Shown here: piece by piece, positions 19,903-64,000 of the stretch
Layout: each line of letters opens with the position of its first letter
Numbering within the stretch: the first letter of the stretch is position 1
Source: Urechidicola sp.
GTDB lineage: Bacteria; Bacteroidota; Bacteroidia; Flavobacteriales; Flavobacteriaceae
Reading direction: 5' to 3'
Length of the DNA: 64,000 bases
NCBI GenBank assembly: GCA_965248525.1
Contig: CBDFJO010000003.1
Span: 41,727-105,726, forward strand
The notes under the pieces: generated by a model
Database searches by the model: none
Seen by the model: only the letters and a program-made list of their open reading frames with translations
Told to the model about the DNA's origin: nothing
Made by a program: the position numbers and the translations under genes

Positions 19903-20027
19903 ACTTAAGTTAAATTAGCAAATGTAACTTTTTAAGATTCATTTAGCATATCTATTTTTATCAATATTGGAATTTAAAAAAGTATAAAAATTTGATAATT
20001 ATTGCGTATTGTAGAATTTTATTTATC
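19903..20027. repeat. Conserved array-tail element, copy 1
   Basis: Roughly 80% identical by eye to 50520-50646; both abut the last attC-like site of an array. Confidence 0.75.
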
Positions 20028-20147
20028 GGTTTTGTATAAGATTTGTGCGGCTTAAAATCCGTAGGATTTTCAGCCTATTACAAATGTTTGTTGGTTGTTT
20101 TGGTTTTCAATTTTTCTTTAAATATAGCATAAAACTTATACGTTGTT
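20025..20147 (-). other. attC-like site (terminal, GAT core)
   Basis: tgtataag...cttatac arms, inner ggct.aaaatcc/ggatttt.agcc hairpin, ends gttgttagcaaac. Confidence 0.65.
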
Positions 20148-20157
20148 AGCAAACGTT

Positions 20158-20664
20158 TTAATTTCTATCCTCAATTATATTTTCAATATTTCCGTTATCA
20201 ATTTTGACTTCATCTTTTTCAGACAGAATTGCAAGTTTTACTGTCTCCAGAATTTCTCCGTGTGTTTGATTAAATAATTTATTCAATGCATTTTCGGGAA
20301 AGTCAGATGTTTTATTTTTTATGGCGAGTTTAATGATTTCACGACTTCTCGTGCTATCACAGATTTCCATTAACATCATAGCCATACTTATTGAATCATA
20401 CTTTTTCCAATATGACTCTTCCTTTAAATAAAATTTTTCTCGTGCTTTTGAATAATATTTTTGAGCCTCTTTATTATTCTCCGATATTTCTAGGATTAAG
20501 GCTCTTTGAGCAAGATAATAATACGATTCAGGATTTTCGTTTATTAACTTTTTATTGATTTCAAGTTCATTGCCAAACTTTTCGTTTTCAGTCAACTTGG
20601 TTGTCTTTTCTTTTTGACAACTTATTGTGATAATTAATGTTAATATTAGAAGTTTAATTTTCAT
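20158..20664 (-). CDS. Cassette-borne hypothetical lipoprotein (TPR-like helices)
   Basis: Lipobox TISC; flanked by gttagcaaacgtt (20145) and aatgtttgctaat (20669-20681). Confidence 0.65.
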   Translation of the reverse strand: MKIKLLILTLIITISCQKEKTTKLTENEKFGNELEINKKLINENPESYYYLAQRALILEISENNKEAQKYYSKAREKFYLKEESYWKKYDSISMAMMLMEICDSTRSREIIKLAIKNKTSDFPENALNKLFNQTHGEILETVKLAILSEKDEVKIDNGNIENIIEDRN

Positions 20665-20668
20665 TCGT

Positions 20669-20730
20669 AATGTTTGCTAATGTTAAGATAAAGTTTCGTT
20701 TTAATGAACTTTATCTTACGATATGTAAAG
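20669..20730 (-). other. Palindromic recombination-site-like sequence upstream of the cassette gene
   Basis: taagataaagtt/aactttatctta inverted repeat next to a degenerate core (ATT for GTT). Confidence 0.5.
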
Positions 20731-20810
20731 TTAGTTCAAATAATTGAGAAAGTCAAGTTTTATCAATTCTAAAATTTTATTGAGATAAAGTTGCATTTGC
20801 TAATTGAACT

Positions 20811-21016
20811 TAAAATTTACTAGCAAAACTGTACAAACTAACAAGCAAAGACTTGCTTTTTACTTATATCAAATAAAAGAGGTGATAGTACTTCAAATAA
20901 ACAACTTTAAACCAGCTAAAAATTTAGAATTCACATAAATTTTAAAATAGGTTTTCTCTAAAAATCGCTTATGTCAACTTTTTTGGACTGATTTTATATT
21001 CTTGTGCAACGATTAC
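20811..21016 (+). mobile_element. IS1182-family right-end remnant (~205 bp)
   Basis: Matches the last ~205 bp of the element at 61721-63467; ends cttgtgcaacgattac. Confidence 0.88.
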
Positions 21017-21096
21017 CCGTGTTGTAACCAGTACTTTTCCTAACTATCTTTTTATTCGAGGTGTTGTTGTTAGAATAGTAAAATAATCAATACTAT

Positions 21097-21446
21097 TTAA
21101 GATTTTAAACAACTTCGAATATTACAAAAATGTCCAATAATTGATGTTGAGAATAGAAACATTCCATATTCAAAAATTTCGGCACGTTCTTCGAGCAATA
21201 TGGATATCACAAAACCAGTAAAAACAATCCATAAAAACAGATTAATTCCTTTGGTGAAATTTCATTTTGTAGCTTTATAAATGGAAATAAATGCTGTCAA
21301 AACAAAGCCAAAAGCAATAATTGGATTACTCAGAAAACCAATTCCCATAGCTAAAAATGTAGGAACTGCAAGGCAATGGACGATACAGAGAATAGAACTA
21401 ATAACCCCTAATTTATCTGCCCAATATATTTTTTTGTTTGTATCAT
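21097..21446 (-). pseudogene. MerC-domain membrane protein, inactivated
   Basis: WADKLGVISSILCIVHCLAVP motif; -1 slip in A7 run near start and in-frame TGA at 21262-21264. Confidence 0.7.
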
Positions 21447-22756
21447 TTATTAAATGTTTTATTGTATTCTAGGTATTTTGTTTTATCGACTTTAACGGCA
21501 TTCCAAATGTCCAAAACCATTATTTCAATGCGTTTATCAACCAAATTTTGAATATCATTTCTATACGTTTGGTAATCGTCGTAATGTGTTTCAGATAAAT
21601 GATTGAATTTATTTTGAAAATAGGTCAAAGGATTAAACCAATAGGTTTTAGAAATAAATTCATTTTTAGACTGGCTATCGTCTTCTATATTGGCAGTAGC
21701 ATTTTTCATTACAATATTAATTAACGCTTCCATAGAATTTCGTCGTGCTCTTTTAATACTAATGCTATCTTTTGCTATTTCCGTTTGTTTTAAACTTGGG
21801 TATAAATCAAAAAGTTGCTTATCGATTATTTGGCTTTCTTGTTTATAGATGTCGGCTGTTTTGTCTCTTTTAGTGTCTATAATGTCAATCATTAAATTAG
21901 TTGGTTTTTCAATAGATATCCATTGTTGTATGGCAGCAGGAATAATAAATGCAAAAAGTAACCAAATTCCTATCATTTGTAAAGTATTTGAAATTGTATT
22001 TTCCCCATATTTCAGAATTAAAAAATAAATGACTGTCCAAAATATAAGATAAACTGCTACCCAAATAAAAATATTCCAAAACGTTGTATCTGTTTCAAAA
22101 ACATTGGTAAGCATAGCTCCATAAACTAATAAACCAAACAATATCGACAAAAGTAGTATAACGTAAAACGCAGTTCGTGATAGTATCCACCAATTTTTAG
22201 CCCCTGTTTGTACAAATACGAGTGGTAAAAAACCTTGCTCTGCTTCTAAACCTTTTATATTGTATAATAAAATCAGTAATAAAAGCGGTAATAGAAATAG
22301 GACTACAAATGAAAAATCTAATGTACCTGACTGAATACGCTCTGGATTGGCAATTTCTTTTGCCATATCTGAATCATAAGGACTACTTGATGTGCTAATT
22401 GCTTTATAGAACCCGTATTGTTCTGCTTGACCAATATTATAAACGATAGCTGGCGACGGTTTTTTATAATGGTAGGTTGGCGTATTCCAAATAGCCCAAA
22501 ATGGCTTTGTATTATCTACCCAAGGTCTATCTTTTGGTCCTTTTTCTCCGTTTTCGAAATAAGAGACTATAATTTCTTTTTTGGTTTCTGCTTCTTTAGT
22601 TATCCTTTCGATTTCGGCATTTTGCTTTTCATATAAATCTGCTCCATTTTGTAAACCATAAATACTTGCAATGATAAAAAGTATTAGTGCTACAATTTTA
22701 AAAGGACTACGGACAAAATGTTTATATTCGTATAAAAATATGTTTAAAGGTCTCAT
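21443..22756 (-). CDS. ABC-2 permease-like / DUF3526 membrane protein
   Basis: Multiple TM helices, LDFSFVVLFLLPL, operonic with 22753-24162. Confidence 0.75.
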   Translation of the reverse strand: MRPLNIFLYEYKHFVRSPFKIVALILFIIASIYGLQNGADLYEKQNAEIERITKEAETKKEIIVSYFENGEKGPKDRPWVDNTKPFWAIWNTPTYHYKKPSPAIVYNIGQAEQYGFYKAISTSSSPYDSDMAKEIANPERIQSGTLDFSFVVLFLLPLLLLILLYNIKGLEAEQGFLPLVFVQTGAKNWWILSRTAFYVILLLSILFGLLVYGAMLTNVFETDTTFWNIFIWVAVYLIFWTVIYFLILKYGENTISNTLQMIGIWLLFAFIIPAAIQQWISIEKPTNLMIDIIDTKRDKTADIYKQESQIIDKQLFDLYPSLKQTEIAKDSISIKRARRNSMEALINIVMKNATANIEDDSQSKNEFISKTYWFNPLTYFQNKFNHLSETHYDDYQTYRNDIQNLVDKRIEIMVLDIWNAVKVDKTKYLEYNKTFNK

Positions 22757-24162
22757 CCGTTTTCAATTTTTTTAGTTCCGAAATGAATAAGTATTATAAC
22801 CAGCACTGACCAAAAAGCTAGTAATACCAAGTCTAATAGATAGTTTGGTAAAACTTTGGAAAGCTTAGTGGGTTTATAATCAAAGTCAGGAACAGATTTA
22901 AAAAATCCGTTATCTTCTTTCCAACCCCAATCTCCTGTTTTAGAACCTCCGAAGGTTTGCTTATCGTTCAACATTTTAATAAAAACACGTCTATAATTTT
23001 CTACTTGCAACAAAAATTCTTGATGATGTAAGTTGTCACTAGCCATAAAACCCATACTGGTGTTTTGTAATGAGATAAATGGATTAACAATTCCTCCTAA
23101 TTGAAAGCTTTGCTTTTGTTCACGAAGAATCTTACGATTATTCCCAAAATGCTTGTCCCAAACACTATTTCCGTATTCTTCATCGGCTTGCATACGTATA
23201 CCATCAAAATTTATGGGTAGTTGCGATAAGTCATCTACATCATACTCTTTAAGTACTTTTTCTTTTAATGCTAAGCCTCTTTTGTCTCTTGGGTTGTGAC
23301 CGTCTATACCTGCAGAGCGGTCTTCTTTCATTGCGGTTTGAAATTGGTTTCTACTAGGAAGTGGATGCCATTTTTCTGCAGAACTCATTAAAATATTGGG
23401 TAAAAAAATCGTCCAAATTATCCAAATACCTAACATTGAAGTTAAAGCAAGTGTCGCGTTTTGCCATCGAGCAGAAAAGAAAACAGTAAGTCCACTAATA
23501 GTAAAATAGTATAAGGCGTAGGATAAAAAGAACAATCCTGTTCTGGTTAAAATTTCAGAAGTGATACTTTTAAGATTTAAAATGCCATAAACCACAACAA
23601 CAAAGCTTAATAGCAACAAACTATACAGCCAAACAGAAAGGGTTTTAGATAAAATAATTTGTAATGGTTTTGCACCTTGTAGTATGAGTAATTTTAGTCT
23701 TCCGCTTTGTTTTTCGCTACTAACTGAATTAAAGGCTAAAAAAATGAGTAAAAGTGGAACTATATATTGTAGTAGAAGTGAAGACTTTAATTTTCCAAAT
23801 CTTGAAATCGCCTGCATTTGCGATGCTTCAGAATGTATAATTTCATTTTGCACGTGTCCTTCAACACGAAGTACATTTCCTGTAACACTATTAACACCTT
23901 CATCTAAACTGCTCAATAAATTAGCAGGTTTAAACACATACGTGCCATAATGTGCTGCACTGTGAGGATTCATTTCGTCAATGCTTACCCATTGCTGACG
24001 TACATGGTCTTTAGCACTTTGATGTGTTTGTTCTTGCTTTTGTGTTTGATAATTTCCTAAAAAAACAGAGACTAACAAGATGGAAATAAAAGCAATGCTG
24101 ATACCTAAAAAAATACGACTACGGACTAAAAATCGCCATTCGTTTTTGATGATTTGCAACAT
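22753..24162 (-). CDS. ABC-2 permease-like / DUF3526 membrane protein
   Basis: NPHSAAHYGTYVFKP, SSEKQSGRLKLL. Confidence 0.78.
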   Translation of the reverse strand: MLQIIKNEWRFLVRSRIFLGISIAFISILLVSVFLGNYQTQKQEQTHQSAKDHVRQQWVSIDEMNPHSAAHYGTYVFKPANLLSSLDEGVNSVTGNVLRVEGHVQNEIIHSEASQMQAISRFGKLKSSLLLQYIVPLLLIFLAFNSVSSEKQSGRLKLLILQGAKPLQIILSKTLSVWLYSLLLLSFVVVVYGILNLKSITSEILTRTGLFFLSYALYYFTISGLTVFFSARWQNATLALTSMLGIWIIWTIFLPNILMSSAEKWHPLPSRNQFQTAMKEDRSAGIDGHNPRDKRGLALKEKVLKEYDVDDLSQLPINFDGIRMQADEEYGNSVWDKHFGNNRKILREQKQSFQLGGIVNPFISLQNTSMGFMASDNLHHQEFLLQVENYRRVFIKMLNDKQTFGGSKTGDWGWKEDNGFFKSVPDFDYKPTKLSKVLPNYLLDLVLLAFWSVLVIILIHFGTKKIENG

Positions 24163-24172
24163 AACATTCTTA

Positions 24173-24874
24173 TTAGTTTTGCATAAATTTTAAATACAAA
24201 TTTTCGAGTTCATTAGCACTTACATCTTCACTATTTAGTTCTTTAACTAAAATTCCATTTTTAAGAATACCAATGTGATTACATACCTCACGTACACGAA
24301 AAATATCATGTGAAGCCATTAAAATAGTTGCACCTTCTGAAGCTAATTTTTTTAGAAGAATAGAAAGTTCATTACTCGCTAAAGGGTCTAAACCACTCGC
24401 AGGTTCATCTAATAAATAGACCTTTGCTTTTTTTGCGTAAGCAATAGCAATGCCTACTTTCTGTCTCATTCCTTTGGAATATCCACTTACTTTTTTGGTA
24501 TGTTCCTTAGTTTCTAATCCGCAAATCGTTAGGTAGTTTTCAAGTTCATTTTTAGAATATTTTAATCCTGCTAACTTGCAGAAATAATCTAAATTTTCTG
24601 ATCCAGATAAATAAGGATATAGATTTACATTTTCAGGAATATAGCCAATAAGTTTTCTAGTCTCTTTTGAATTATGGATAGAGTCTATATCATTGATACG
24701 TATCTTTCCAAAATCTGGATTAAGAAACCCCAATAACATATTTATAGTAGTAGATTTTCCTGCACCATTTGCACCCAAAAGTCCTAAAATCTGACCTTTA
24801 TCGACTTCTAAATCTAAGTTTTGAATAGCGATATTTCCTTTAAATGACTTGCTAACGTTTTGTAATTGTATCAT
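24173..24874 (-). CDS. ABC transporter ATP-binding protein
   Basis: GANGAGKST, YSKGMRQ, LDEP, SHD. Confidence 0.92.
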   Translation of the reverse strand: MIQLQNVSKSFKGNIAIQNLDLEVDKGQILGLLGANGAGKSTTINMLLGFLNPDFGKIRINDIDSIHNSKETRKLIGYIPENVNLYPYLSGSENLDYFCKLAGLKYSKNELENYLTICGLETKEHTKKVSGYSKGMRQKVGIAIAYAKKAKVYLLDEPASGLDPLASNELSILLKKLASEGATILMASHDIFRVREVCNHIGILKNGILVKELNSEDVSANELENLYLKFMQN

Positions 24875-24890
24875 AAAAATAGCTTGTTAA

Positions 24891-24944
24891 TGCAACCAAG
24901 TTGCGAAAATAGAAAATAAAATTTGCAATTGCAACACAGTTGCA
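24891..24944. promoter_or_regulatory. Two palindromic TGCAAC-N3-GTTGC operator-like boxes
   Basis: tgcaaccaagttgcg (24891-24905) and tgcaacacagttgca (24930-24944) between divergent ABC and Fur-like genes. Confidence 0.55.
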
Positions 24945-24959
24945 TTAATTTTGTCATTA

Positions 24960-25263
24960 ATAAAAATTATTAGAAAAACAAAAGCTGTAACTATAGTACT
25001 CCAAATTTTTGAAGAGAGAAACGAAGCCAAATTAGTAGTGCGTCTCATAGAACTTTTAATGGAAAAGATGGTTTAAAGTGGTATGCTAAATGTGAGGGAT
25101 GTTCTGCTAATCATCATTCGGACAAGCATCCACATTTCCAATGCACTAAATGCGATAAAGTCGAGTGTTTGTCTTTAGATATTAAAATTCCTACCATAAA
25201 AATCATAAAGTAGATTCTTCAGACATTCTCTTAATGGGGCAATGTGAAGTTTGTAGTTTGTGA
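24960..25263 (+). pseudogene. Fur-family metalloregulator, decayed
   Basis: IIRKTKAV start without ATG; KWYAKC...HPHFQCTKC...GQCEVC; internal deletion and frameshifts. Confidence 0.72.
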
Positions 25264-25274
25264 GTATTGGTTAC

Positions 25275-25327
25275 AACATATGGATAACCCTATTGTGGTT
25301 ATATTTTATATTCTTGTCAACGATTAC
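25275..25327 (-). other. attI-like head fused to IS1182 terminal remnant
   Basis: aac-atatggataaccctattgtggttatat then tattcttgt(g)caacgattac. Confidence 0.7.
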
Positions 25328-25600
25328 TTGTGTTAGCAAAAGTGCTTATAAATTACAATGTTCAGCTTTCTCTCTTTTTTCTTCTGTAAAACGAAAGGTA
25401 AATTCAAATTCTAGTTCACTGATTTCTTTTCTATTTTCATAGTTTTCAATTTCAGTTAAACCAAGTTCACACTCTGAATTATTACCATAAATAAAAACAC
25501 GACTACCACTAATCTCTACAAATGGATCATAATTATTTATTAAAGGTTTTTTACCGTATTCATAAGCATTAAATAAGCGATTTAAAATTATTTCGGATGT

Positions 25601-26623
25601 TTAAATACCTAAGCTATTAAACAACTCTTTTAATTCCTTCATAGAAGGCCTAGGCGCATTAGGAGTTATGATATTTCCTTTTGGATCGATTAAAATGAAT
25701 CTTGGAATCCCTTCTATCTTATAGTTTTTTATAAACTCAGATTTCCCTGCTTTGTCAGCTAATAATTGAATTCCCCCTAGTTTTTTTTCTTTAATCATCG
25801 TTTTCCATTTGTCATAATCTTTAGGTTTGTCTATAGAAAGACTTACAAACTCAATGTTTTTACCGTGGTAAGCTTTCTCTACTTCTTTTAAGTAAGGAAT
25901 TTCAGCTAGACAAGGACGGCACCAAGTAGCCCAAACATCAATATAGACATACTTTCCTTTTAAATCATCTAAAGAAGTCTTTCCACCAGCATTGTTTTCA
26001 TATGCTATAAATTTTGGAGAGGTTTTTCCTTTTCCTAAAGCAGTTTTTATGTAAGATGCCTTTTCTTGAAGACTTCCTAGATATTTCTTTAATCTGGCAA
26101 ATCCTAATTTCTCGTTTGCAACAAAAGCAGTATCTAAACCAGATACTCCATCAAGGTTTTTCATGAAATCACTTTCAACAGTTTCTAATTTTGCAACGAA
26201 ATTTTCTTTGCTCATCTCAAACATAGTTTTATTTGCAAGAAGAGCCTCTTGGTTTAATATTTTTTTAGCTAAATAGTTATTAGCCTCAGCACCACTTCCA
26301 GTATAAACAATAGTTTCATCAAACTGCTTCGTGTCTAAAGTTAAATGTACATCTTGACCATTTTTAAGGTAAAGATCAGTATCTTCTGTCCCATCGGATA
26401 ACCAAAAACCACCAGTTACTACTTTTAAAGTATCACTAAAAGCACCATCAGTAGCAACAGTAATTCGCTTTTTAAAGTTTCCGTCTGTATCTGATATGAC
26501 TAAGGAGTCAGAATTTTGATTTGTTATTTTTCCTGAAAACGTAACATAGTCCTTAGCCTCTTGTTTACAGGCAACTACTATTAAAGCAGCAATAGTCAAG
26601 TACATTAATTTTTTTATTTTCAT
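25601..26623 (-). CDS. TlpA-family thioredoxin-like lipoprotein, copy 1
   Basis: Lipobox VVAC; WATWCRPC; IPRFILIDPKG. Confidence 0.88.
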   Translation of the reverse strand: MKIKKLMYLTIAALIVVACKQEAKDYVTFSGKITNQNSDSLVISDTDGNFKKRITVATDGAFSDTLKVVTGGFWLSDGTEDTDLYLKNGQDVHLTLDTKQFDETIVYTGSGAEANNYLAKKILNQEALLANKTMFEMSKENFVAKLETVESDFMKNLDGVSGLDTAFVANEKLGFARLKKYLGSLQEKASYIKTALGKGKTSPKFIAYENNAGGKTSLDDLKGKYVYIDVWATWCRPCLAEIPYLKEVEKAYHGKNIEFVSLSIDKPKDYDKWKTMIKEKKLGGIQLLADKAGKSEFIKNYKIEGIPRFILIDPKGNIITPNAPRPSMKELKELFNSLGI

Positions 26624-26666
26624 AATTTTTTGTTTTAAAGGTTAATGTTCATTTTACATTTTTACT

Positions 26667-26720
26667 AACATATGTATAACCCTATTGTGGTTATATTTTA
26701 TATTCTTGTGCAACGATTAC
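26667..26720 (-). other. attI-like head fused to IS1182 terminal remnant
   Basis: aac-atatgtataaccctattgtggttatat then tattcttgtgcaacgattac. Confidence 0.7.
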
Positions 26721-26990
26721 TTGTGTTAGCAAAAGTGCTTATAAATTACAATGTTCAGCTTTCTCTCTTTTTTCTTCTGTAAAACGAAAGGTAAATTCAA
26801 ATTCTAGTTCACTGATTTCTTTTCTATTTTCATAGTTTTCAATTTCAGTTAAACCAAGTTCACACTCTGAATTATTACCATAAATAAAAACACGACTACC
26901 ACTAATCTCTACAAATGGATCATAATTATTTATTAAAGGTTTTTTACCGTATTCATAAGCATTAAATAAGCGATTTAAAATTATTTCGGA

Positions 26991-28013
26991 TTAAATACCT
27001 AAGCTATCAAACAACTCTTTTAATTCCTTCATAGAAGGCCTAGGCGCATTATGAGTTATGATATTTCCTTTTGGATCGATTAAAATGAATCTTGGAATCT
27101 CTTCTATCCTATAGTTTTTTAAAAACTCAGATTTCCCTGTTGTTGTTCTGTCAGCTAATAATTGAATTCCCCCTAGTTTTTTTTCTTTAATCATCGTTTT
27201 CCATTTGTCATGATCTTTAGGTTCGTCTATAGAAAGACTTACAAACTCAATGTTTTTACCGTGGTAAGCTTTCTCTACTTCTTTTAAGTAAGGAATTTCA
27301 GCTAGACAAGGACGGCACCAAGTAGCCCAAATATCAATATAGACATACTTTCCTTTTAAATCATCTAAAGAAGTCTTTCCACCAGCATTGTTTTCATATG
27401 CTATAAATTTTGGAGAGGGTTTTCCTTTTCCTAAAACAGTTTTTATGTAAGATGCCTTTTCTTGAAGAATTCCTAGAAATCTCTTTAATCCGACAAATCC
27501 TAATTTCTCGCTTGCAACAAAAGCAGTATCTAAACCAGATACTCCATCAAGGTTTTTCATAAAATCACTTTCAATAGTTTCTAATTTTGCATCGAAATCT
27601 TCTTTGCTCATCTCAAGCAGAGTTTTATTTGTAAAAAGATCTCCTTGGTTTAATACTTTTTTAGCTAAATAGTTATTAGCCTCAGCACCACTTCCAGTAT
27701 AAACAACAGTTTCATCAAACTGCTTCGTGTCTAAAGTTAAATGTACATCTTGACCATTTTTAAGGTAAAGATTAGTCTGTTCTTTCCCATCTTGTAACCA
27801 AAAACCACCAGTTACTACTTTTAAAGTATCACTAAAAGTACCATCAGCAGCAACAGTAATTCGCTTTTTAAAGGTTCCGAATCCTATGAGTAAGGAGTCA
27901 GAATTTTGATTTGTTATTTTTCCTGAAAACGTAACATAGTCCTTAGCCTCTTGTTTACAGGCAACTACTATTAAAGTAGCAATAGTCAAGTACATTAATT
28001 TTTTCATTTTCAT
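26991..28013 (-). CDS. TlpA-family thioredoxin-like lipoprotein, copy 2
   Basis: Paralog of 25601-26623; WATWCRPC. Confidence 0.88.
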   Translation of the reverse strand: MKMKKLMYLTIATLIVVACKQEAKDYVTFSGKITNQNSDSLLIGFGTFKKRITVAADGTFSDTLKVVTGGFWLQDGKEQTNLYLKNGQDVHLTLDTKQFDETVVYTGSGAEANNYLAKKVLNQGDLFTNKTLLEMSKEDFDAKLETIESDFMKNLDGVSGLDTAFVASEKLGFVGLKRFLGILQEKASYIKTVLGKGKPSPKFIAYENNAGGKTSLDDLKGKYVYIDIWATWCRPCLAEIPYLKEVEKAYHGKNIEFVSLSIDEPKDHDKWKTMIKEKKLGGIQLLADRTTTGKSEFLKNYRIEEIPRFILIDPKGNIITHNAPRPSMKELKELFDSLGI

Positions 28014-28078
28014 AATTTTTTGTTTTAAAGGTTTAAAGGTTAATGTTCAAAGGTTAATGTTCATTTTATATTTTTACT

Positions 28079-28127
28079 AACATACGTATAACCTATTGTG
28101 GTTATATTTTATACGTCCGCAAATGTA
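28079..28127 (-). promoter_or_regulatory. Array head: attI-like site with TAnnTTTG promoter box firing into the array
   Basis: Minus strand tacatttg (28120-28127) ... tataaccacaataggttata-cgtat-G|TTAGT. Confidence 0.68.
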
Positions 28128-55779: not shown

Positions 55780-55899
55780 AACGTTGCCTGTATGGTTAGT
55801 GGCGTTTTAAAATTACTGTACTTTCGGTTAAGCACAAACTTTGTTTTAAGTATTGAACTTTGAACTTAGCACTATGTAGCCATTAACTATACAGATTGT
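55780..55899 (-). other. Long attC-like site, split by the group II intron
   Basis: aac-gttgcc-tgtatggttagtggc...gccattaactataca-gatt-gt|t; homologous to 60766-60887. Confidence 0.82.
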
Positions 55900-56420: not shown

Positions 56421-57503
56421 ATGTATCTTTCGTACTATAATCAAAACTGTAATAAAATGTATAAACCCAGAGGGAAAAAAGGATTATTTGATGAAGAATT
56501 TACAAAAGATCGCTTATCATCAATAGGCAATCCATTAGAAAACATAAGTAAAGTTATTGATTTTGAATTATTTAGAGAATTGCTAGAGCATAAGTTACTC
56601 AACACTAACAAAAAAAGCAATGCAGGAGCAAAACCTTATGACTTGGTAATGATGTTTAAAATATTGATACTTCAACGTTATTATGGTTTAGGAGATAGTC
56701 AAGTTGAATATCAAATATTAGATAGAATGAGTTTTAAAACATTTTTAGGATTAGAGACTGGCGATAAAGTACCAGATGAAAAAACCGTATGGAGTTTTAG
56801 AGAACGTGTAACAAAAACAGGTTTAGTAGAAGAATTATTTGAGCAGTTTACTTTCTTTTTAGAAGAAAAAAAACTCATATTTAATGAAGGACAATTGATT
56901 GATGCCAGTTTTACAGTAGCACCACGCCAAAGAAACACAAGGAAAGAAAACAAGAAAATAAAAGACGGTAAGGGTAATGAATTATGGAATGACAAACCCA
57001 ACAAGAAAAAACATAAAGATATTGATGCACGTTGGACAAAGAAAAATGGTGAAACTTTCTTTGGTTATAAAAATCACGCAAAGGTAGGCACTAAAAGTAA
57101 ATTCATTAACACTTACACAGTAACAGACGCCTCGGTTCACGACTCACAAGCTTTGGATGACTTGCTTACCGAAAAAGATAAAAACCAAGATTTACACGCA
57201 GATAGTGCATACACAGGCAAAGAGCAAGATAAGATTATCAAAAAATATGAAATGAAAAATAAAGTACACGAAAAAGGCTATCATAATAAACCATTGACAG
57301 AGAAACAAAAAGCAAGCAACACTAAAAAATCAAAAATTAGAGCAAGAGTAGAGCATGTATTTGGCTTTATGGAGCAAAGTATGAAAGGTTTAGTTTTAAA
57401 ATCAGTAGGAATTATAAGAGCATCAGGAATAATTGGTTTAATCAACTTAACCTACAATTTATTTAGGTATGAACAAATCAAAAGATTAAACATAACTTAC
57501 TGA
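56421..57503 (+). CDS. IS5-family transposase
   Basis: PDEKTVWSFRE, IDASF, DIDARW, ADSAY, RARVEHVFG; likely start at MYKPRG. Confidence 0.9.
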   Translation: MYLSYYNQNCNKMYKPRGKKGLFDEEFTKDRLSSIGNPLENISKVIDFELFRELLEHKLLNTNKKSNAGAKPYDLVMMFKILILQRYYGLGDSQVEYQILDRMSFKTFLGLETGDKVPDEKTVWSFRERVTKTGLVEELFEQFTFFLEEKKLIFNEGQLIDASFTVAPRQRNTRKENKKIKDGKGNELWNDKPNKKKHKDIDARWTKKNGETFFGYKNHAKVGTKSKFINTYTVTDASVHDSQALDDLLTEKDKNQDLHADSAYTGKEQDKIIKKYEMKNKVHEKGYHNKPLTEKQKASNTKKSKIRARVEHVFGFMEQSMKGLVLKSVGIIRASGIIGLINLTYNLFRYEQIKRLNITY

Positions 57504-57574
57504 TAGACGGATAGATTGGATAGATGGATAGATGGATAGATGGATAGATGGATAGATGGATAGATGGATAGATG
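57502..57574 (+). repeat. 8-bp tandem repeat (GATAGATG) inside IS5
   Basis: 7 perfect copies at 57519-57574 plus 2 degenerate copies. Confidence 0.95.
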
Positions 57575-57756
57575 GAATTTGATGTTTTGTGTATCAAAAT
57601 CAAAAAATATTACTACCTTTGTAGTGTTAATCTTTTTTCTAAAAAAGATAAAAAAGGGTTCTCATCTTTTTTAGAAAACTGAAAAACCAATTTTTAGAAC
57701 TCCCCTATAGTTTAACTTAACGGACAGAGGAGCAATAACAAAGTAACAATTTAATT

Positions 57757-58156
57757 ATGGAATTAATAACAAAAGTTTTAGAGTATTCAAATATCAAGGC
57801 TCACTATTTTTGTACGTGGTTGGGTAAACTATTATAAGTATGCCAATATGACTACAAAGTTAAAATCGTTAGATACTTGGGTTCGTAGTAGGTTGCGTTA
57901 CTGCATTTGGAAACATTGGAAAAAGCCCAACAAACGTATGCGTAGTTATATCCGTTTGGGTATTGCTAAAGGTCAGGCTTATGCTTGGTCACGTTCACGG
58001 ATGGGTGGCTGGGCAACGGCATTAAGCCCAATAATGAAAACCACAATAACAGTCGAAAGACTATTAAAACGTGGTTATCTTTCTTTTTCTGCTCAATTTC
58101 AAATGTCGTTTAGGTTAATACCAAAAGACATTCAATTAAAATTATCTTTTGTTTAA
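57757..58156 (+). pseudogene. Intron-encoded protein with the RT domain deleted
   Basis: MELITKVLEYSNIKA N-terminus, then out-of-frame jump to RGWVNYY...RSRLRYCIWKHWKK (maturase X domain); no YADD. Confidence 0.82.
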
Positions 58157-58248
58157 TGAACCGCCAAGTACGAGAACCGTACGCTTGGTGGTGTGAGAGG
58201 CGCACTCTCCTCAAGATTGAGGAGAGCCGCCTACTCGATTAGCAAACG

Positions 58249-59286
58249 TTATTTTTTATTTTCTTCTATTATCTCTTTTCTTTTTTGAGATATTTCTAAA
58301 TTGTATTTCCACTTTTTATTGTAATCAACATTTTCTCTCATTTTTGCATACTCAATCGCTTTGTCATAATTACCAAGAGCATAATTCACTCCAGAAATAT
58401 TGCTCAATATACTCCAGTAAACCTTTTTTTGTTTTTTATCAGTTTTATCCTTTATTTTTTTTAGTTCGTTTTCAAAATGAGTTAAACTCTCTTTTGCAAT
58501 GCTCTTTAAGTTTTCTTTATAGGTATCGCTAAATTTCAATTTATTCATTTCGATTAATTTTTCAACTTGGTCATTGTTTTTTATTCCAAATTTTTCTTCC
58601 TTTTTAATAAAAAATAAATTTATTCTTTTGGCTTCATAATAAGTAGAAAATTTTGATTTTAAAGATTTAGAAATATCTCCTATTACATAATCTGCTTGGT
58701 TCATGTTTTTACTAGAACGATATTCAATTGCATTTGCATTATACTGCTTTTTGATTTGAGATAATGCTATTCCATTAGATTTTATGGATGCATTATTAAA
58801 AACTTCAGCACTTTCTGTTTTGCTTTTTTGTGTAAAAACTTTATCAAAAAGAATATTTTTTTTGGTGTCTGTTACTACGACCTTAATTGATGAAGATATT
58901 TCAACAATACCTGTATAAGTGTTTTTTGCATCTTTACCATAGTTTTTTTTCTCTTTTACACTTAATATGTGTTTTATACCTAAATCAGTTAATTCTATAA
59001 TGAAATCAGGATTTTCTGATTTTGTAAAACCAGGGATTTTTAATGAACGGTCAATAAGGATCGAAATATTTGTGTTCTTAAATGAAGAAGACTTTTGTTC
59101 TCCGTTTATTATTAATCTTACATTATCACTATTAGAATTTACTTTTACAGCGTAATTTTGATACTCAACAGGTAATTTAATTTCTGGGTAATGTTTTTCT
59201 TCAATATACCAACCTTTATTTTTTGCGTTTTGTGCTGATAAATTGATACTTACTAATGTTAATAGTAATAAAATGAATTTTTTCAT
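58249..59286 (-). CDS. Cassette-borne secreted hypothetical protein (C-terminal TPR-like)
   Basis: Signal peptide MKKFILLLL...SA; ends match gt|tagcaaac and gtttgctaac. Confidence 0.7.
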   Translation of the reverse strand: MKKFILLLLTLVSINLSAQNAKNKGWYIEEKHYPEIKLPVEYQNYAVKVNSNSDNVRLIINGEQKSSSFKNTNISILIDRSLKIPGFTKSENPDFIIELTDLGIKHILSVKEKKNYGKDAKNTYTGIVEISSSIKVVVTDTKKNILFDKVFTQKSKTESAEVFNNASIKSNGIALSQIKKQYNANAIEYRSSKNMNQADYVIGDISKSLKSKFSTYYEAKRINLFFIKKEEKFGIKNNDQVEKLIEMNKLKFSDTYKENLKSIAKESLTHFENELKKIKDKTDKKQKKVYWSILSNISGVNYALGNYDKAIEYAKMRENVDYNKKWKYNLEISQKRKEIIEENKK

Positions 59287-59308
59287 ATTTTTTGTTTTAA
59301 TGTTTGCT

Positions 59309-59357
59309 AACGTATGGATAACCCTATTGTGGTTATATCTTATATGTCTGCAAGTTA
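59309..59357 (-). promoter_or_regulatory. Array head: attI-like site with degenerate promoter box
   Basis: Minus strand taacttg...ataaccacaatagggttatccatac-G|TTAGC; matches 28079, 26667 and 25275. Confidence 0.65.
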
Positions 59358-59497
59358 CTATTTTTTAATTCATCCAAAGGACTGCTAATATTTTTATGAA
59401 ATAAAAGTTATAGTTGCTATTTAAAGTTGCGTAATACGATATTAGAAAGTTAAGTTGGTATTGTGTTTTTTTTTGTACTATTGTTTACAAAAAAAAT

Positions 59498-59697
59498 ATG
59501 CCTTTAGTACAACCTTTAGCTGCCGATGCAAATCCTGATGTAAAAAAATTAGCCGAATTCTTTAACGAAACACTCGGTTTTTGTCCAAATTCGGTTTTAA
59601 CAATGCAAATTCGACCAGAAATTGCACGCTCATTTATAAATATGAATATGGCAGTAATGGATAATCAAGGTAGCGTAACATCAGCTTTAAAAAGAAT
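59498..59697 (+). pseudogene. AhpD/carboxymuconolactone decarboxylase family, 3'-truncated
   Basis: FFNETLGFCPNSVLTM...TSALKRM then unrelated sequence; CxxC region missing. Confidence 0.72.
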
Positions 59698-59796
59698 GAC
59701 CATTAACAATTCCGTGCTATTGAGTGCTTCCACTCCTTTAGCTGCCAATTTTTCTCTTGGTTTGTCATTATTGGGTATTTCTGATATTTTTCTCAC
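59692..59796 (-). pseudogene. radC: RadC N-terminal fragment
   Basis: GTG-RKISEIPNNDKPREKLAAKGVEALNSTELLMVIL, truncated against the ahpD remnant. Confidence 0.72.
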
Positions 59797-60314
59797 TTCT
59801 TTTTGGCATCCGTTTTAAAACCTATCCGTTCTCTGTTCTTGTGTTCTATTTGAGTTTTATCTTTTTTTAGCAAGTAATTAATGGCTTCATAAACATCCTT
59901 GAATTGTTTATTATACTTGGCTTCTAAGGCTTTGAGTTTTTCACCCATATCGCTGTATTGCATAGCGAATTGCTTAAGTGTAATAAAAGCACGAACTATG
60001 GCAATACTGGTTTGGCGAGCTTTTTTACTCTTGAGTACGTTGGCGAGCATTGTAACTCCGTGTTCAGTAAAGGCAAGTGGCAAGGCAGTTTTGGGTCGTT
60101 TTGCTGGGTATGTCATCACAATTTGTGATAACATCTCCCATTCGGTTTTAGAGAGCTTAAACATAAAATCTTCTGGAAAAATATCAGCGTTACGCTTTAC
60201 GGCCTGATTGAGTACTCTGGTTTCTACTTCGTATAACTCGGCCAGATCGAAGTCGAGCATTATTCGTTGTCCGCGTATTTCATAAATTCTATTTTGTATA
60301 ACTTGTAAATCCAT
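59793..60314 (-). CDS. ORF6N (KilA-N-like) domain protein
   Basis: IRGQRIMLDFDLAELYEVET..LNQAVKRN...FTEHG. Confidence 0.88.
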   Translation of the reverse strand: MDLQVIQNRIYEIRGQRIMLDFDLAELYEVETRVLNQAVKRNADIFPEDFMFKLSKTEWEMLSQIVMTYPAKRPKTALPLAFTEHGVTMLANVLKSKKARQTSIAIVRAFITLKQFAMQYSDMGEKLKALEAKYNKQFKDVYEAINYLLKKDKTQIEHKNRERIGFKTDAKKK

Positions 60315-60596
60315 CTATTTTTTTCTTACTCTTTTTAGGGTTAATTCAAGACAATCTTCGGCCAATTTTTCGCCATTTACAGTATCAAATACCTTGTCTG
60401 AGAGCCAAAGAATAAGCAATTGCTTTTCACTCGTTTTGAAAAGTTTAGCAAGTTTGGGCAGATAAGTTCTACTTATAGGCTTTTCTCTGCTTTCCATCTT
60501 GCTAATGTATGCCGTATCCACTTCCAATTTAGCGGCTACTTCTCTTTGCTTGAGCCCATTTTGCTCTCTCAATTCTTTGAGTTTTTGGCTCAACAT
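60315..60596 (-). CDS. XRE-family HTH regulator
   Basis: LKELRE...QREVAAKLEVDTAYISKMES. Confidence 0.85.
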   Translation of the reverse strand: MLSQKLKELREQNGLKQREVAAKLEVDTAYISKMESREKPISRTYLPKLAKLFKTSEKQLLILWLSDKVFDTVNGEKLAEDCLELTLKRVRKK

Positions 60597-60765
60597 ATGA
60601 CCAAATTATTCTTGTCCATTATTGGGCAAATATACAATTATCATACAGAAATTCAATTCGTTTTTGTAAAAGCAAAATTAGGCTCTTTTGGTTTTTTGAG
60701 CGTTGGCTTTTGTTATTGGCAAAAACCAAATGTGTCTGATGTGGGTGGGCTTCTATATGCCCTAC

Positions 60766-60887
60766 AACGATTTCTGTATGGTTAGTGGCGTTTTAAAGAA
60801 CCGAAATTTTCGGTTTATCACAGAACTTTATTAAAAGAATTGAACTTCAAATTTAGTACTTTGTAGCCATTAACTATACAGATTGTT
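60766..60887 (-). other. Long attC-like site
   Basis: aac-gatttc-tgtatggttagtggc...gccattaactataca-gatt-gtt. Confidence 0.82.
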
Positions 60888-60997
60888 ACAAGCCCTTTAT
60901 TGTATTTCAGTCAACAAGTTAAACTCCATTCGCGTTAGCATCTTTTTCATTTTGATTGATTTTTCCGTTGATTAAGATTTCTGCAAATAGTTATTTA

Positions 60998-61621
60998 TCA
61001 TAGAGAATAATTAAAACTTATTTGGAATACGGAACTTTTTGTATTATCTCTTTCAATTATTGCATAATTATAGCGTAATCCAATTTGATAATCATTTGAA
61101 AATGAGTAACCAATTCCTAAATTAACAGCCATTTCAAATTTATCAAAACTACCATTTCCATATGATAAATTATCATTATTATCAGTTACATTTTGATTTA
61201 CTACATATCCTGCTTGTGGCCCAATCTCAATACTGATATTGTTATTAAAATGGTAATCCAACATAATTGGGAGTAAAATTAAATTTTGTTTTATATCTGC
61301 TTTATAATTAATATTATTAAGTGGCTCATCAGAACCAATTAAACCTGTTTTAAGTTCATATTCTGCACTCTGAGTAGAGAAAAGTAATTCAGGGTTCAAT
61401 ATTAAATTATTAGTTAAATTTAAACTTAAAAACCCACCAATATGAAAACCAATTTTTCCATTAAAATCTGCCGGAAATTCATTAGGTATATCTTTTCCTA
61501 AAATAAAAGTTGAATAATTAATTCCTGCTTTTATTCCAAACTTAATTTTGTTATCTTGTGAGTTAGCATTAAGACTAAACAGCAGTATTAATATTCCAAA
61601 AAGTAATATGTTTTTTTTCAT
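60998..61621 (-). CDS. PorT-like outer-membrane beta-barrel protein (cassette-borne)
   Basis: Signal peptide; FGIKAGINYS; terminal FNYSL; ends gttacaagcc/ggcttgtaac. Confidence 0.78.
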   Translation of the reverse strand: MKKNILLFGILILLFSLNANSQDNKIKFGIKAGINYSTFILGKDIPNEFPADFNGKIGFHIGGFLSLNLTNNLILNPELLFSTQSAEYELKTGLIGSDEPLNNINYKADIKQNLILLPIMLDYHFNNNISIEIGPQAGYVVNQNVTDNNDNLSYGNGSFDKFEMAVNLGIGYSFSNDYQIGLRYNYAIIERDNTKSSVFQISFNYSL

Positions 61622-61664
61622 TTTTAAATTTATTATGTTAATTTTTATTCGTTTTATGGCTTGT

Positions 61665-61720
61665 AACGTTCCGTGTATGGTGTCGTAGCATCCCGAAGGG
61701 TGCTATGCACTATACACATT
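61665..61720 (-). other. attC-like site split by IS1182
   Basis: aac-gttccg-tgtatggtg-tcgtagcatccc/gggtgctatg-cactataca-catt|IS|catt-gtt. Confidence 0.82.
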
Positions 61721-63467
61721 GTGCCTGTTGCACAAGATACAATTAATTTCACAAAAATAATAATAATAAGGTTTTAAATTATTTTGTTAATCCATTGATA
61801 TTAAGTATCTTTATACATGCAAGGAAAGAAAATATACCAAGAAAAGTTGTTTGCTAATTTTCAGTTAAGCGACCGAGTTCCCAAGAACAATTTTTATCGA
61901 AGATTACATAAAGTTTTAGATTTAGACTTTTTGTATAAACTCACAAGACCATTTTATGGAGAGAGTGGACAGGAGAGTATTGATCCTATAGTTTTCTTTA
62001 AACTTTGTTTAGTAGGATATTTAGAAAACATCATAAGCGATCGCAAATTAATCTCTCATTGTGCAATGCGGTTAGATATTTTGTATTTTATAGGTTATGA
62101 TATTGATGAGCCATTACCTTGGCATTCTACCATAAGTCGTACCCGACAATTATATACAGAAGCAGTATTTGAAGAATTTTTTACCAAAGTATTACAAATG
62201 TGTATAAACAAAGGGATGGTTTCTGGTCATACCCAAGCCATAGATTCTGCACCTATAAAAGCCAATGCTTCTATGGATACATTGGAACTAAAAGTACCTG
62301 CCGAAGAACTAGAAGATTATTTACTCAAGGTTCGTCATATTAGCGATGTAGATAAACCCAAGAATACACGTAAAGCAAAAGAGAATAAGGCAAGTAAGGA
62401 GCAACAAACTGTTACTGCAAAGCCAAGTGAATTACAAGCCATAAAAAGCAGAAATAAAAAATGGTCTAAAGACCAGAATTATCGTCCAGGGGCAGGAAAT
62501 AAGGGATCTAAATATACATCCAACAAAACCCATTATAGTCCAACCGATCCAGATGCTCGGATAAGTGTCAAGCCAGGCAAAGCTAGGAAGCTCAACTATA
62601 GTAGTCAACTAAGTGTAGATACGGGTCATCATGTGATAACAGATATTAAAGCCTATCATGCAGATAAAAAAGACAGTCAATGTTTAGAAGATATCACTGT
62701 TCGATTAAAAAAGCGCTTAGATAAAAACGGATTACTTTGGCAAAACATATTGGCAGATACAGGCTATAGTGATGGTAGCAATTATGCCTTTTTAGAAACC
62801 GAAGCCTTAGAAAGTTATATCCCACCACATGGAACTTACAAAGGAGGACCAGAAGGTTTTTTATATGATAAAGAACAAGATTGTTATATATGTCCACAAG
62901 GAAAAACAATACCGTTTAAAAAAGTGTTTAGAGATTATAAAACAGGTACAAAAAAGAAAGAATATAGATGTTCATCACTAATTTGTAAGACTTGCCCTAT
63001 AAAGCAACAATGTTTGGGCAAAACTGCACAAGAAAAGAAGTTTACTGTAACCTATTATCGAGAAGAATATGAACGCAATAACAAAAGAGTAAACTCCAAA
63101 CAAGGACGTTATATGAAATACAAACGCAGTAGTACTGTTGAGCCTGTTTTTGGGACCCTCACTCAATTTATGGGACTCCGTAAAATAAATACGATTGGTA
63201 TTCAACAAGCCAACAAGGTCATGCATATGGCTGCAATTGCTTATAATATCAAGAAATACCTAAAATTCACTAGCAAAACTGTACAAACTAACAAGCAAAG
63301 ACTTGCTTTTTACTTATATCAAATAAAAGAGGCAATAGTACTTCAAATAAGCAACTTTAAACCAGTTAAAAATTTAGAATTTGTATGAATTTTAAAATAG
63401 GGTTTCTCTAAAAAATCGCTTAGGTCAACTTTTTTGGATTGATTTTATATTCTTGTGCAACGATTAC
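61721..63467 (+). mobile_element. IS1182-family element, complete
   Basis: 16-bp imperfect TIR GTgcctGTTGCACAAG / rc GTaatcGTTGCACAAG; 4-bp CATT duplication. Confidence 0.88.
61817..63388 (+). CDS. IS1182-family transposase
   Basis: GQESIDP, PWHSTISR, AIDSAP, TDPDAR, LADTGY, CxxCP..C, RSSTVEPVFG. Confidence 0.9.
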   Translation: MQGKKIYQEKLFANFQLSDRVPKNNFYRRLHKVLDLDFLYKLTRPFYGESGQESIDPIVFFKLCLVGYLENIISDRKLISHCAMRLDILYFIGYDIDEPLPWHSTISRTRQLYTEAVFEEFFTKVLQMCINKGMVSGHTQAIDSAPIKANASMDTLELKVPAEELEDYLLKVRHISDVDKPKNTRKAKENKASKEQQTVTAKPSELQAIKSRNKKWSKDQNYRPGAGNKGSKYTSNKTHYSPTDPDARISVKPGKARKLNYSSQLSVDTGHHVITDIKAYHADKKDSQCLEDITVRLKKRLDKNGLLWQNILADTGYSDGSNYAFLETEALESYIPPHGTYKGGPEGFLYDKEQDCYICPQGKTIPFKKVFRDYKTGTKKKEYRCSSLICKTCPIKQQCLGKTAQEKKFTVTYYREEYERNNKRVNSKQGRYMKYKRSSTVEPVFGTLTQFMGLRKINTIGIQQANKVMHMAAIAYNIKKYLKFTSKTVQTNKQRLAFYLYQIKEAIVLQISNFKPVKNLEFV

Positions 63468-63605
63468 CATTGTTGTGTTTTCGTTTTTTATTTTCATTTC
63501 GTTTTAACGTTGGGGCAAACATACTCTTTGGCAAGTTTTGGCTCGTGTGGTTGGTTTTTGAGCGACTTGACAATGTGTATGGTTGCTGGGTGATGGAATT
63601 CATCT

Positions 63606-64000
63606 TCAAATTTTTGCTACGTTGATTAATTTATTGTTCATTAGGACTGAATCCTCATATTTTGATCTGGTTAATTTCTTTTGAAGAAACAAATCCTTCT
63701 CAACAGCTTTAATCTGTTCTAATCCACTTTCGGAAACTGTAACAAACCACCCTTCTCCAACCTCTCCATCCTTACGTGGTGTCATGTTAGTATTTCCATT
63801 TGACCAATAAATAGATTGTGCCATTAATTCACCTTCAGAGTTTTTCCATGCAAATTGCTTGGTTGCTTCAGGCTTCCACCCTAGATGTCTTGCCAAAACA
63901 GGGTTAATAGCAATCCATTTAGATTTTAAATCAAATTGATCGAATCTATGATCCCTGACTACAACAATAAAATGCCCACCACCTTTCAAATCATGATAGT
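63606..64000 (-). CDS. C-terminal end of a larger protein running off the window
   Basis: INPVLARHLGW...SIYWSNG...GEVGEGWFV; frame appears open to the window edge. Confidence 0.55.
   Translation of the reverse strand, partial: YHDLKGGGHFIVVVRDHRFDQFDLKSKWIAINPVLARHLGWKPEATKQFAWKNSEGELMAQSIYWSNGNTNMTPRKDGEVGEGWFVTVSESGLEQIKAVEKDLFLQKKLTRSKYEDSVLMNNKLINVAKI

Follow-up and report, generated by a model that had tools for sequence, protein, structure and literature searches.

Three cassette-array fragments in a flavobacterial chromosome very probably come from a Bacteroidota-specific integron-like platform with a non-canonical recombinase

Integrons are the model for structure-specific single-strand site-specific recombination and for cassette-based adaptation; the additional domain of their integrase, IntI, is treated as defining and indispensable, and Bacteroidota have repeatedly been called almost devoid of them. 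What, then, is to be made of a 64-kb stretch of a flavobacterial (Lutibacter-like) chromosome (Urechidicola sp., contig CBDFJO010000003.1; hereafter the window, whose positions serve as coordinates) in which gene modules, all on the − strand, are separated by ten hairpin sites that lie on the + strand and run from AAC to GTT? An earlier note, made from the sequence alone, took the modules for integron-like cassettes of a lineage-specific system of single-stranded DNA hairpins, served by a recombinase in trans. We conclude that the window very probably holds three fragments of cassette arrays (fragment 1, 20025–28116; fragment 2a, 51398–59347; fragment 2b, 59700 to past 64000) from a Bacteroidota-specific integron-like platform with a non-canonical recombinase. 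The wider proposition is to us evenly balanced: that Bacteroidota own a widespread integron lineage in which a Xer-like recombinase without the additional domain, bearing tandem N-terminal and possibly HARP-like structure-binding repeats, recombines folded single-stranded attC sites at a hairpin attI.

Read on the + strand, a site opens with AAC and closes with GTT (Table 1); spacers of 5 nt on the AAC side and 3 nt on the GTT side enclose a long stem, its return arm and, between the two, a variable centre. The seven hairpins first listed are all present: four are intact, two are interrupted straight after GT, by a group II intron (55780) and by an insertion sequence (IS; 61665), and the one at 20025 is degenerate. 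Four additional short-type sites stand behind module ends in fragments 1 and 2a. The two-nucleotide spacer asymmetry described for most sites is borne out as 5/3 in five of the six full ones; at 52593 it is one nucleotide (4/3 by scanner, 5/4 by eye). Folded as single-stranded DNA and compared with shuffles, the sites have z-scores of −3.7 to −5.8, and in all five strand pairs tested the + strand is more stable than the − strand, by 1.9–3.6 kcal/mol. When both strands of the 64 kb were scanned without a model for dense AAC...GTT hairpins (dG/nt ≤ −0.3), only the four intact sites were returned, followed by 12 further candidates of weaker folding (dG/nt between −0.06 and −0.24). AAC/GTT ends, a variable centre, single bulges and spacer asymmetry are all seen, whereas spacing, stem length and G·T pairs differ from the layout usual for attC.

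The ends of each module are complementary to one another. Comparing the 7 nt past a GTT with the 7 nt before the next AAC, we counted 7, 6, 6, 7, 5, 6, 7, 7 and 7 matches in nine modules, a mean of 6.4/7 against 2.1/7 for mismatched pairings (n = 70), and in a permutation test of module ends the observed sum was equalled in 6 of 100,000 trials. The two flanks of a single hairpin agree at only 1–3 of 7 positions, the exception being the hairpin between two tandem duplicate cassettes. Both patterns are as the earlier note had described them, and the first is indeed better than shuffled pairings. One module shows the rule across an interruption: the ends of cassette C8, T-AGCAAAC and GTTTGCT-AAC, pair 7/7 across the intron, and removal of the intron joins its exons into GTT-AGCAAAC. 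For the end ...CCCTACAAC of the truncated cassette at 59700–60768 we found no GTT partner. The two to five genes per cassette first described hold for some modules, namely C1 (an ABC transporter of three genes), C6 (three open reading frames, ORFs) and C7 (two ORFs); others carry one gene or none.

A comparison with Flavivirga amylovorans fixes which gene each site belongs to. There, at 14659–14832 of the homologous locus, the counterpart of the site at 61665 runs uninterrupted into the next cassette DNA, which is 88% identical to 63469–63586 directly past the homologous attC, so that the attC and 115 nt of its cassette are common to both genomes. The homology begins precisely at the AAC of 61665 and runs through GTT into the right-hand cassette, and the left-hand cassette differs; the attC thus belongs to the minus-strand gene 5′ of it, as in integrons. 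By this sequence comparison the exchange point lies at the AAC end in + coordinates, and the intron and IS use the other end of the site. The crossover at G|TT first suggested therefore stands for the coding − strand and not for the GTT of the + strand.

The sites form a family well beyond the window. From the six full sites we built a covariance model, R1, which matches only those six in the window, with 50–71 bits on the + strand and at most 29 bits on the − strand. We collected 77 loci through the transposase of the IS from GTDB representative genomes (Kordia, Flavivirga, Wocania, Polaribacter, Maribacter, Aequorivita, Aquimarina, Bizionia, Marinifilum and others), with relatives found at 77–80% identity. 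The model scan of Bacteroidota that had been proposed gave 89 sites in these 77 loci, nearly all on the strand of the IS. An alignment of 74 sites has 96.8% of its pair positions paired; column shuffles reach 78.7% and slid partners 28–51%, and compensatory changes occur at 15 of the 19 pairs. Two G·T wobbles are conserved, in 66 and 69 of the 74 sites; because they turn into C·A mismatches on the coding strand, selection must act on the fold of the non-coding strand and not on that of the mRNA. The sites share the consensus AACG-N4-GTRTATG...CATAYAC-N3-GTT, and their lengths fall into three classes of about 60, 123 and 187 nt (58–61, 121–126 and 184–192), some 63 nt apart, as if the variable centre held zero, one or two copies of an inner module. 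The 7-nt end rule also holds outside the window, in 15 of 23 adjacent site pairs less than 2 kb apart compared with 1.2% of random pairs. Past the 7 nt there follow, typically, a T·G wobble and two or three more pairs; a circle would thus regain a stem of 10–14 bp.

A recombinase lies next to homologous arrays. A phmmer search of the fetched loci with IntI1 found proteins of 428–432 aa at the array edge in two Kordia species, and such an enzyme adjoins arrays in Kordia (three species), Aureivirga, Chitinophagales and metagenome contigs. A co-occurring tyrosine recombinase had been anticipated; the absence of an integrase is thus right for the window and does not extend to other genomes. The enzyme scores 223 bits against NF040815, 'XerA/integron integrase' (cut-off 220), and 195 bits against the integron integrase model TIGR02249, below its cut-off of 265 and in two pieces. 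It is colinear with the solved structures of XerA and has 26 residues where VchIntIA has 69; a MAFFT alignment places a 42-residue gap exactly at the additional domain of IntI1. Judged from these alignments and the TIGR02249 score, array-adjacent recombinases lack the additional domain. The catalytic R, K, H-x-x-R, H and Y are all conserved. There are thousands of homologues, and every named one is from Bacteroidota.

These recombinases carry 140–280 extra N-terminal residues made up of two or three repeats of about 60 aa, which an AlphaFold model (predicted local distance difference test, pLDDT, 90) renders as tandem beta-beta-alpha-beta-beta-alpha units. Their best profile match in the PDB is the HARP domain of SMARCAL1, with an E value of only 0.014; one homologue matches Pfam HARP at 23.9 bits (cut-off 25), and Foldseek returned no significant match for the N-terminal model. 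Structure-specific DNA binding by the repeats is, on this modelled fold, only a lead.

Complete platforms occur in Kordia algicida OT-1, Aureivirga sp. and two Chitinophagales contigs. Small genes, mostly without a family, come after the recombinase in the same direction, and all R1 matches with E < 0.1 are downstream, intergenic and on the strand opposite to the genes. Among 80 further metagenome loci whose recombinases are 35–51% identical, R1 gave 10 matches, all of them again downstream on the opposite strand. Since so few sites in so many distant loci mark R1 as family-specific, we wrote a model-free hairpin scanner with its threshold set on the window; of the hairpins that it found across 84 recombinase loci, 38 lay downstream and on the opposite strand and 8 lay upstream, while the same strand had none downstream.

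Applied to the first site of each array, the end rule places the first cassette boundary 85–180 nt past the recombinase stop codon in five of six loci. Each predicted boundary is preceded by a conserved palindrome and TATAC-N4, for example atataccgaattcggtatatacgtac|GTTGCCCACA, and the palindrome with TATAC-N4-G|TT is a candidate hairpin-type attI, an insertion site beside the integrase gene that the related loci have and the window does not. The two Chitinophagales contigs agree with this placement. They encode an identical recombinase and differ at 3 positions in the first 11810 nt, then diverge wholly from 11811, exactly the predicted attI junction; beyond it one has a LinB-like gene and small ORFs, and the other a type I restriction-modification system and DarT/Macro. 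Because the recombinase and attI head homologous arrays, the sites covary, the strands are asymmetric and strains differ from attI onwards, the idea of a lineage-specific hairpin-cassette system with its own recombinase is strongly supported; action in trans stays a conjecture, since elsewhere the enzyme is adjacent.

In a cassette, a single minus-strand gene or a small group of them precedes an attC-like site that folds on the non-coding (+) strand, and at the head of the array in complete platforms of related genomes stands a Xer/IntI-like recombinase, co-directional with the cassettes, then a candidate hairpin attI ending in TATAC-N4-G|TT. We propose the following mechanism. By analogy with integrons, the recombinase would bind the folded bottom strand and exchange a single strand at AA|C, which is G|TT on the coding strand. 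Recombination of attC with attC would excise the cassette as a circle, its two ends paired in a stem of 10–14 bp, and recombination of attI with attC would place that circle just 3′ of the recombinase gene.

Several observations weigh against this account. Pfam searches of all sizeable ORFs found no tyrosine recombinase in the window, and a search there for an attI-like motif found no attI, only short-type attC sites that resemble it. In one of the Chitinophagales contigs (L082) the DNA past the attI breakpoint does not start with GTT. The HARP-like reading of the N-terminal repeats, a lead from sequence profiles, has weak scores. Recombination activity is something we infer throughout, and the window fragments, which end in IS remnants and in an illegitimate junction within a CMD-family gene, may be inert relics. 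Canonical integrases need the additional domain to recombine attC (Messier and Roy 2001, as cited in PMC9668308), and it is for this reason that we offer an enzyme acting on hairpins without that domain as a hypothesis; that it catalyses single-strand hairpin recombination is argued here by analogy.

The parasites of the sites bear on the history of the fragments. The intron, recognized by Rfam RF02001 (108 bits at 56028–56200) and with its 5′ end GTGTG at 55900, has decayed: an IS5-like insertion at 56375–57709 (inverted repeats 56375–56395 and 57689–57709; transposase 56421–57503 by Pfam) replaces the reverse-transcriptase part and leaves a maturase tail in ORF 57848–58156. Group IIC-attC introns are inserted in the bottom strand of attC, opposite to cassette transcription (PMC3001079), and the window intron likewise has its ribozyme after the attC hairpin, on the bottom strand and opposite to transcription. 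The element at 61723 has the DUF772 and DDE_Tnp_1_6 domains, terminal inverted repeats and target duplication (4–6 bp) of the IS1182 family; its ends were set by a 99.9% identical copy in a metagenome contig and by the empty site in Flavivirga. It entered at TTGT|T, the point that the intron occupies in its own site. At least 12 of the 77 copies elsewhere in Bacteroidota directly follow an attC-like site, which ends right at the IS left end. The intron at 55899/58240 and the IS at 61722 are known kinds of attC parasites.

How these fragments came to lie where they do can be read from their chromosomal setting. The closest named relatives of the housekeeping proteins are Lutibacter sp. metagenome-assembled genomes (MAGs), with one of which (88–91% DNA identity) synteny runs from 42176 to 50516 (OsmC). 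It resumes only at 59432–59699 and halts again at 59699/59700; this 268-bp core island, the upstream region and first ~200 nt of the CMD-family gene, stands between two array fragments. The CMD gene is truncated at 59699, where fragment 2b was joined by an illegitimate junction. The 8.9 kb at 50517–59431 are missing from the Lutibacter OsmC–CMD interval, which makes fragment 2a, with its IS remnant and intron, an insertion in the spacer. Fragment 1, 23 kb away between trmB and a LysE-family gene, is bounded by an IS right-end remnant and by a sequence at 28117–28140, after the cut site 28079–28116, that resembles the IS left end in a 13-nt match. We infer that the succession IS right end, cassettes, attC-GT and IS left end is the leftover of a decayed composite IS–cassette–IS unit, and that the fragments were probably broken up and relocated by the attC-targeting IS1182-family element together with illegitimate recombination. 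The short, dispersed arrays of the earlier note are accordingly no design feature, since the fragments are bounded by IS remnants and illegitimate junctions.

This setting gives the strongest rival its force. It grants that the arrays come from the Bacteroidota platform and holds that they are dead relics, moved by IS or illegitimately, on which no recombinase acts now; we regard it as a serious possibility, though short of even. IS right-end remnants at the low-coordinate ends of fragments 1 and 2a, the left-end-like sequence at 28117, the scar in two sites, the degenerate site at 20025, the junction at 59699/59700, the decayed intron and the lack of a recombinase within 64 kb all fit decay. 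Yet four sites are intact and well conserved (R1 50–71 bits), a tandem cassette duplication at 97–100% identity and an intact IS point to recent activity, and fragment 2b runs off the window towards the side where the recombinase is expected.

An unlikely reading is that these are ordinary integron remnants, that is, clusters of attC sites lacking integrases (CALIN), with canonical attC sites and a canonical IntI, additional domain included, encoded elsewhere in the genome. In structure the fragments resemble a CALIN (at least two attC sites, no integrase nearby), a class formally defined through the IntegronFinder attC model, with 4–6 sites each and no recombinase; AAC/GTT ends, the unpaired spacer, variable terminal structure, bimodal or trimodal lengths, own-end complementarity and targeting by a IIC-type intron are shared as well, and reviews name Bacteroidota among the phyla with detected integrons. 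What argues for the Bacteroidota-specific platform instead is that every related locus with an array-adjacent recombinase has an enzyme without the additional domain, and that the 5/3 spacer, the uninterrupted stem of 9–10 bp, the G·T wobbles and the AACG and TTGTT cores differ from the usual attC layout. For Bacteroidetes, moreover, IntegronFinder surveys of complete genomes listed In0 elements and one integron, in Salinibacter, and nothing else (PMC9024848).

It is very improbable that the hairpins are repetitive extragenic palindrome (REP)-like intergenic elements or transcription terminators with no role in recombination: they are stable stem-loops in intergenic DNA 3′ of genes, but terminators leave the 7-nt complementarity between module ends unexplained, no T-run follows the stems, AAC/GTT is invariant, the G·T wobbles lie on the non-transcribed strand and would be C·A mismatches in mRNA, and the exclusive and polar association with the recombinase and the strain divergence beginning at attI would have no place. 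The Flavo-1 RNA motif (Rfam RF01705), or another non-coding RNA, is a negligible candidate that came only from a suggestion in the earlier note, and Rfam gives no match to it in the window, even when the limit is relaxed from the gathering threshold to E ≤ 10. The motif occurs widely in Flavobacteriaceae, with neither a known function nor a known strand preference relative to transcripts; we rejected it also in six array loci (129 kb, ~35 sites), where none reached the gathering threshold.

Table 1. Features of the array fragments, in order of position; fold values are single-stranded DNA free energies in kcal/mol, and end matches are out of 7 nt
Feature	Positions	Strand	Details
Long-type attC-like site, degenerate	20025–20148	+	Distal end of fragment 1; ATC replaces AAC; 124 nt (~123-nt size class); GTATAAG/CTTATAC stems, then gtt-GTT; fold −14.4, z −3.7; R1 only 13.9 bits, E 0.86
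Cassette C0	20146–20681	−	Ends GTTAGCAAAC / GTTTGCTAAT; ORF 20158–20664, 168 aa, no significant Pfam match
IS right-end remnant	20808–21020	+	Adjoins GTT of C1; 93% identity to 63258–63476
Cassette C1, three-gene ABC-2 transporter	21021–25277	−	Ends GTTGTAACCA/TGGTTACAAC, 7/7; ORFs 21443–22756, 22753–24162, 24173–24874; Pfam ABC_tran, ABC2_membrane, DUF3526
Short-type attC-like site with 17-nt scar of IS right end	25275–25334	+	Repeat family D6
Cassette C2, thioredoxin/peroxiredoxin-like	25332–26669	−	ORF 25601–26623; Pfam Redoxin, AhpC-TSA; ends 6/7
Short-type attC-like site, same 17-nt IS scar	26667–26727	+	
Cassette C3, tandem duplicate of C2	26725–28081	−	ORF 26991–28013; 97–100% identity; repeat families D1, D2, D8, D9
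Short-type attC-like site cut after GT	28079–28116	+	Proximal end of fragment 1
Second IS right-end remnant	51312–51397	+	Adjoins GTT of C4; 97% identity to 63387–63475
Cassette C4, ClpP-like SDH-type serine protease (Pfam)	51398–52595	−	ORF 51412–52326; ends 7/7
attC-like site, intact	52593–52653	+ (= bottom strand)	R1 49.5 bits; fold −12.2 (+) vs −10.1 (−)
Cassette C5, non-coding	52651–53064	−	No ORF ≥80 aa; ends 5/7
attC-like site, intact	53062–53119	+	R1 64.3 bits; fold −11.4 (+) vs −9.5 (−)
Cassette C6, three small ORFs	53117–54260	−	DUF6804 and two without family (Pfam); ends 6/7
attC-like site, intact	54258–54316	+	R1 71.1 bits (+) vs 29.4 (−); fold −13.5 vs −11.2
Cassette C7, radical SAM protein (Pfam) and 106-aa ORF	54314–55782	−	Ends 7/7
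Long-type attC-like site, broken	55780–55899	+	Broken after ...GATTGT, missing T at 58240; R1 53.6 bits
Degenerate group II (IIC-type) intron	55900–58239	+	attC bottom strand, between C8 gene and its attC
Cassette C8, no family	58240–59311	−	ORF 58249–59286, 345 aa
Short-type attC-like site cut after GT	59309–59347	+	End of fragment 2a; core DNA back at 59432
Truncated cassette	59700–60768	−	Start of fragment 2b; XRE-type helix-turn-helix 60315–60596, ORF6N protein 59793–60314 (Pfam)
Long-type attC-like site, intact	60766–60887	+	R1 61 bits; fold −17.1 (+) vs −15.1 (−)
Cassette C9, outer-membrane beta-barrel protein (Pfam)	60885–61667	−	ORF 60998–61621; ends 7/7
attC-like site, broken by IS	61665–61722	+	Broken after ...CATTGT; R1 55.7 bits
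Intact IS1182-family element	61723–63466	+	Transposase 61817–63388; Pfam DUF772, DDE_Tnp_1_6; at TTGT|T of attC
Next cassette, GTT-GTGTTTT...	63467–64000	−	ORF open at window end; towards expected recombinase-proximal side

Among the cassettes, the tandem copy at 25332–28081 doubles a whole thioredoxin-like lipoprotein cassette, including the attC with its IS scar. The non-coding C5 holds a near-perfect 54-nt palindrome (52661–52714), and its part 52863–52954 is 80% identical to 12420–12513 of a Kordia sp. locus, a segment that lies 3′ of the predicted attI junction there and 5′ of the first attC-like site; C5 could be a regulatory or promoter cassette. The plasmid of Fulvitalea axinellae (250 kb, Rep3/ParAB) has a KAP NTPase downstream of a homologous recombinase, with weak attC matches, and platforms may carry defence genes and be plasmid-borne.

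Introns akin to the window copy (71% identity over 366 nt) occur in Marinifilum loci (including L051 and L052), and at another locus (L048, 17590–17710) a group II intron begins immediately past an attC-like site, which suggests a Bacteroidota branch of attC-targeting introns. Inside the IS5-like element, just past the transposase stop, 57509–57584 consists of about nine tandem 8-bp units (TGGATAGA).

A 140-nt repeat, X, occurs with 84% identity at 19891–20027 and 50507–50646, the low-coordinate edges of fragments 1 and 2a, with an inverted 27-nt copy at 20787–20813; at fragment 2a it starts exactly where Lutibacter synteny ends (50516). In 78 loci it is essentially window-specific, with one 40-nt partial match (L046), and it could be a transposon end or a miniature inverted-repeat transposable element (MITE). 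Between repeat X and the IS remnant, 50681–51136 (−) encodes a YhcG-type PD-(D/E)XK nuclease ORF that covers profile positions 21–157 only and is thus probably 5′-truncated. Farther off, Exo_endo_phos_3 paralogues at 40675–41643, 46170–47216 and 47288–48328 flank a SusC-like/DUF5689 pair, two of the three being kept in the Lutibacter relative, and a DDE transposase (DDE_Tnp_1) lies at 2260–3537 (−) in the core region beside a MutS2-like gene.

In open-access literature and bioRxiv we found no description of these arrays, of array-associated recombinases lacking the additional domain, or of attC arrays in Flavobacteriaceae. A 2024 preprint still counts Bacteroidota among the clades previously found without integrons; Cury et al. 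set aside tyrosine recombinases near attC that lack intI_Cterm as 'not IntI', and according to Smyshlyaev et al. an 'integron-like' subgroup does not fully conserve the insertion. Integron searches of the standard kind demand the additional domain and would, on our wider proposition, pass the platform over. If the proposed platform is real, recombination of hairpin cassettes has arisen, or endures, without the canonical recognition module, a natural experiment on the recognition of folded DNA; marine, soil and gut Bacteroidota would hold a large unseen reservoir of mobile cassettes, in arrays that carry metabolic, envelope and defence genes. It predicts circles with a cassette-end stem of 10–14 bp, dependence on the bottom strand and insertion at TATAC-N4-G|TT.

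Several known systems resemble parts of this platform. Among attC-targeting IS, the IS1111-attC group is of the IS110 family, unlike the window IS, a DDE element of the IS1182 family. The position of the window intron, between a gene and its attC and on the bottom strand of the latter, is that of group IIC-attC introns (PMC3001079). Flavo-1 shares the host family, but its covariance model matches no site here. The pdif modules of Acinetobacter plasmids are bounded by 28-bp duplex XerC/XerD sites in alternating orientation; like the cassettes they are discrete gene modules bordered by Xer-family sites, shuffled in their case between replicons, and unlike them they have no hairpins, dedicated recombinase or attI. 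The attP(+) of CTX phage, a hairpin of one DNA strand, is integrated at dif by host XerC/D through exchange of a single strand pair, just as a Xer-type recombinase without the additional domain would act here on a one-strand hairpin. The phage is, however, a single genome, with neither cassette arrays nor a dedicated recombinase or attI.

A further comparison is with integrons themselves. The platform differs from them in its recombinase, which lacks the additional domain, falls below the TIGR02249 cut-off, has 2–3 N-terminal repeats of ~60 aa and is co-directional with the cassettes; in its sites, which compared with the usual attC layout have 5/3 spacers, an uninterrupted stem of 9–10 bp and two conserved G·T wobbles; in a circle stem from the cassette ends of 10–14 bp rather than 7; in an attI that is itself a hairpin; and in several cassettes with 2–3 genes. 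The platform shares with integrons arrays of promoter-poor cassettes in one orientation, each closed by a structured AAC/GTT site with an unpaired asymmetric spacer and a variable terminal structure; cassettes whose own ends pair because the site in the array is chimeric; a single preferred folding strand opposite to the coding strand; a G|TT attI beside a tyrosine recombinase in the related loci; cassette duplications; parasitism by a IIC-attC-type intron and an attC-targeting IS; and array fragments without an integrase, comparable to CALIN. The closest integron kin for comparison are the sedentary chromosomal integrons of the 'inverted integrase' group, such as those of Treponema.

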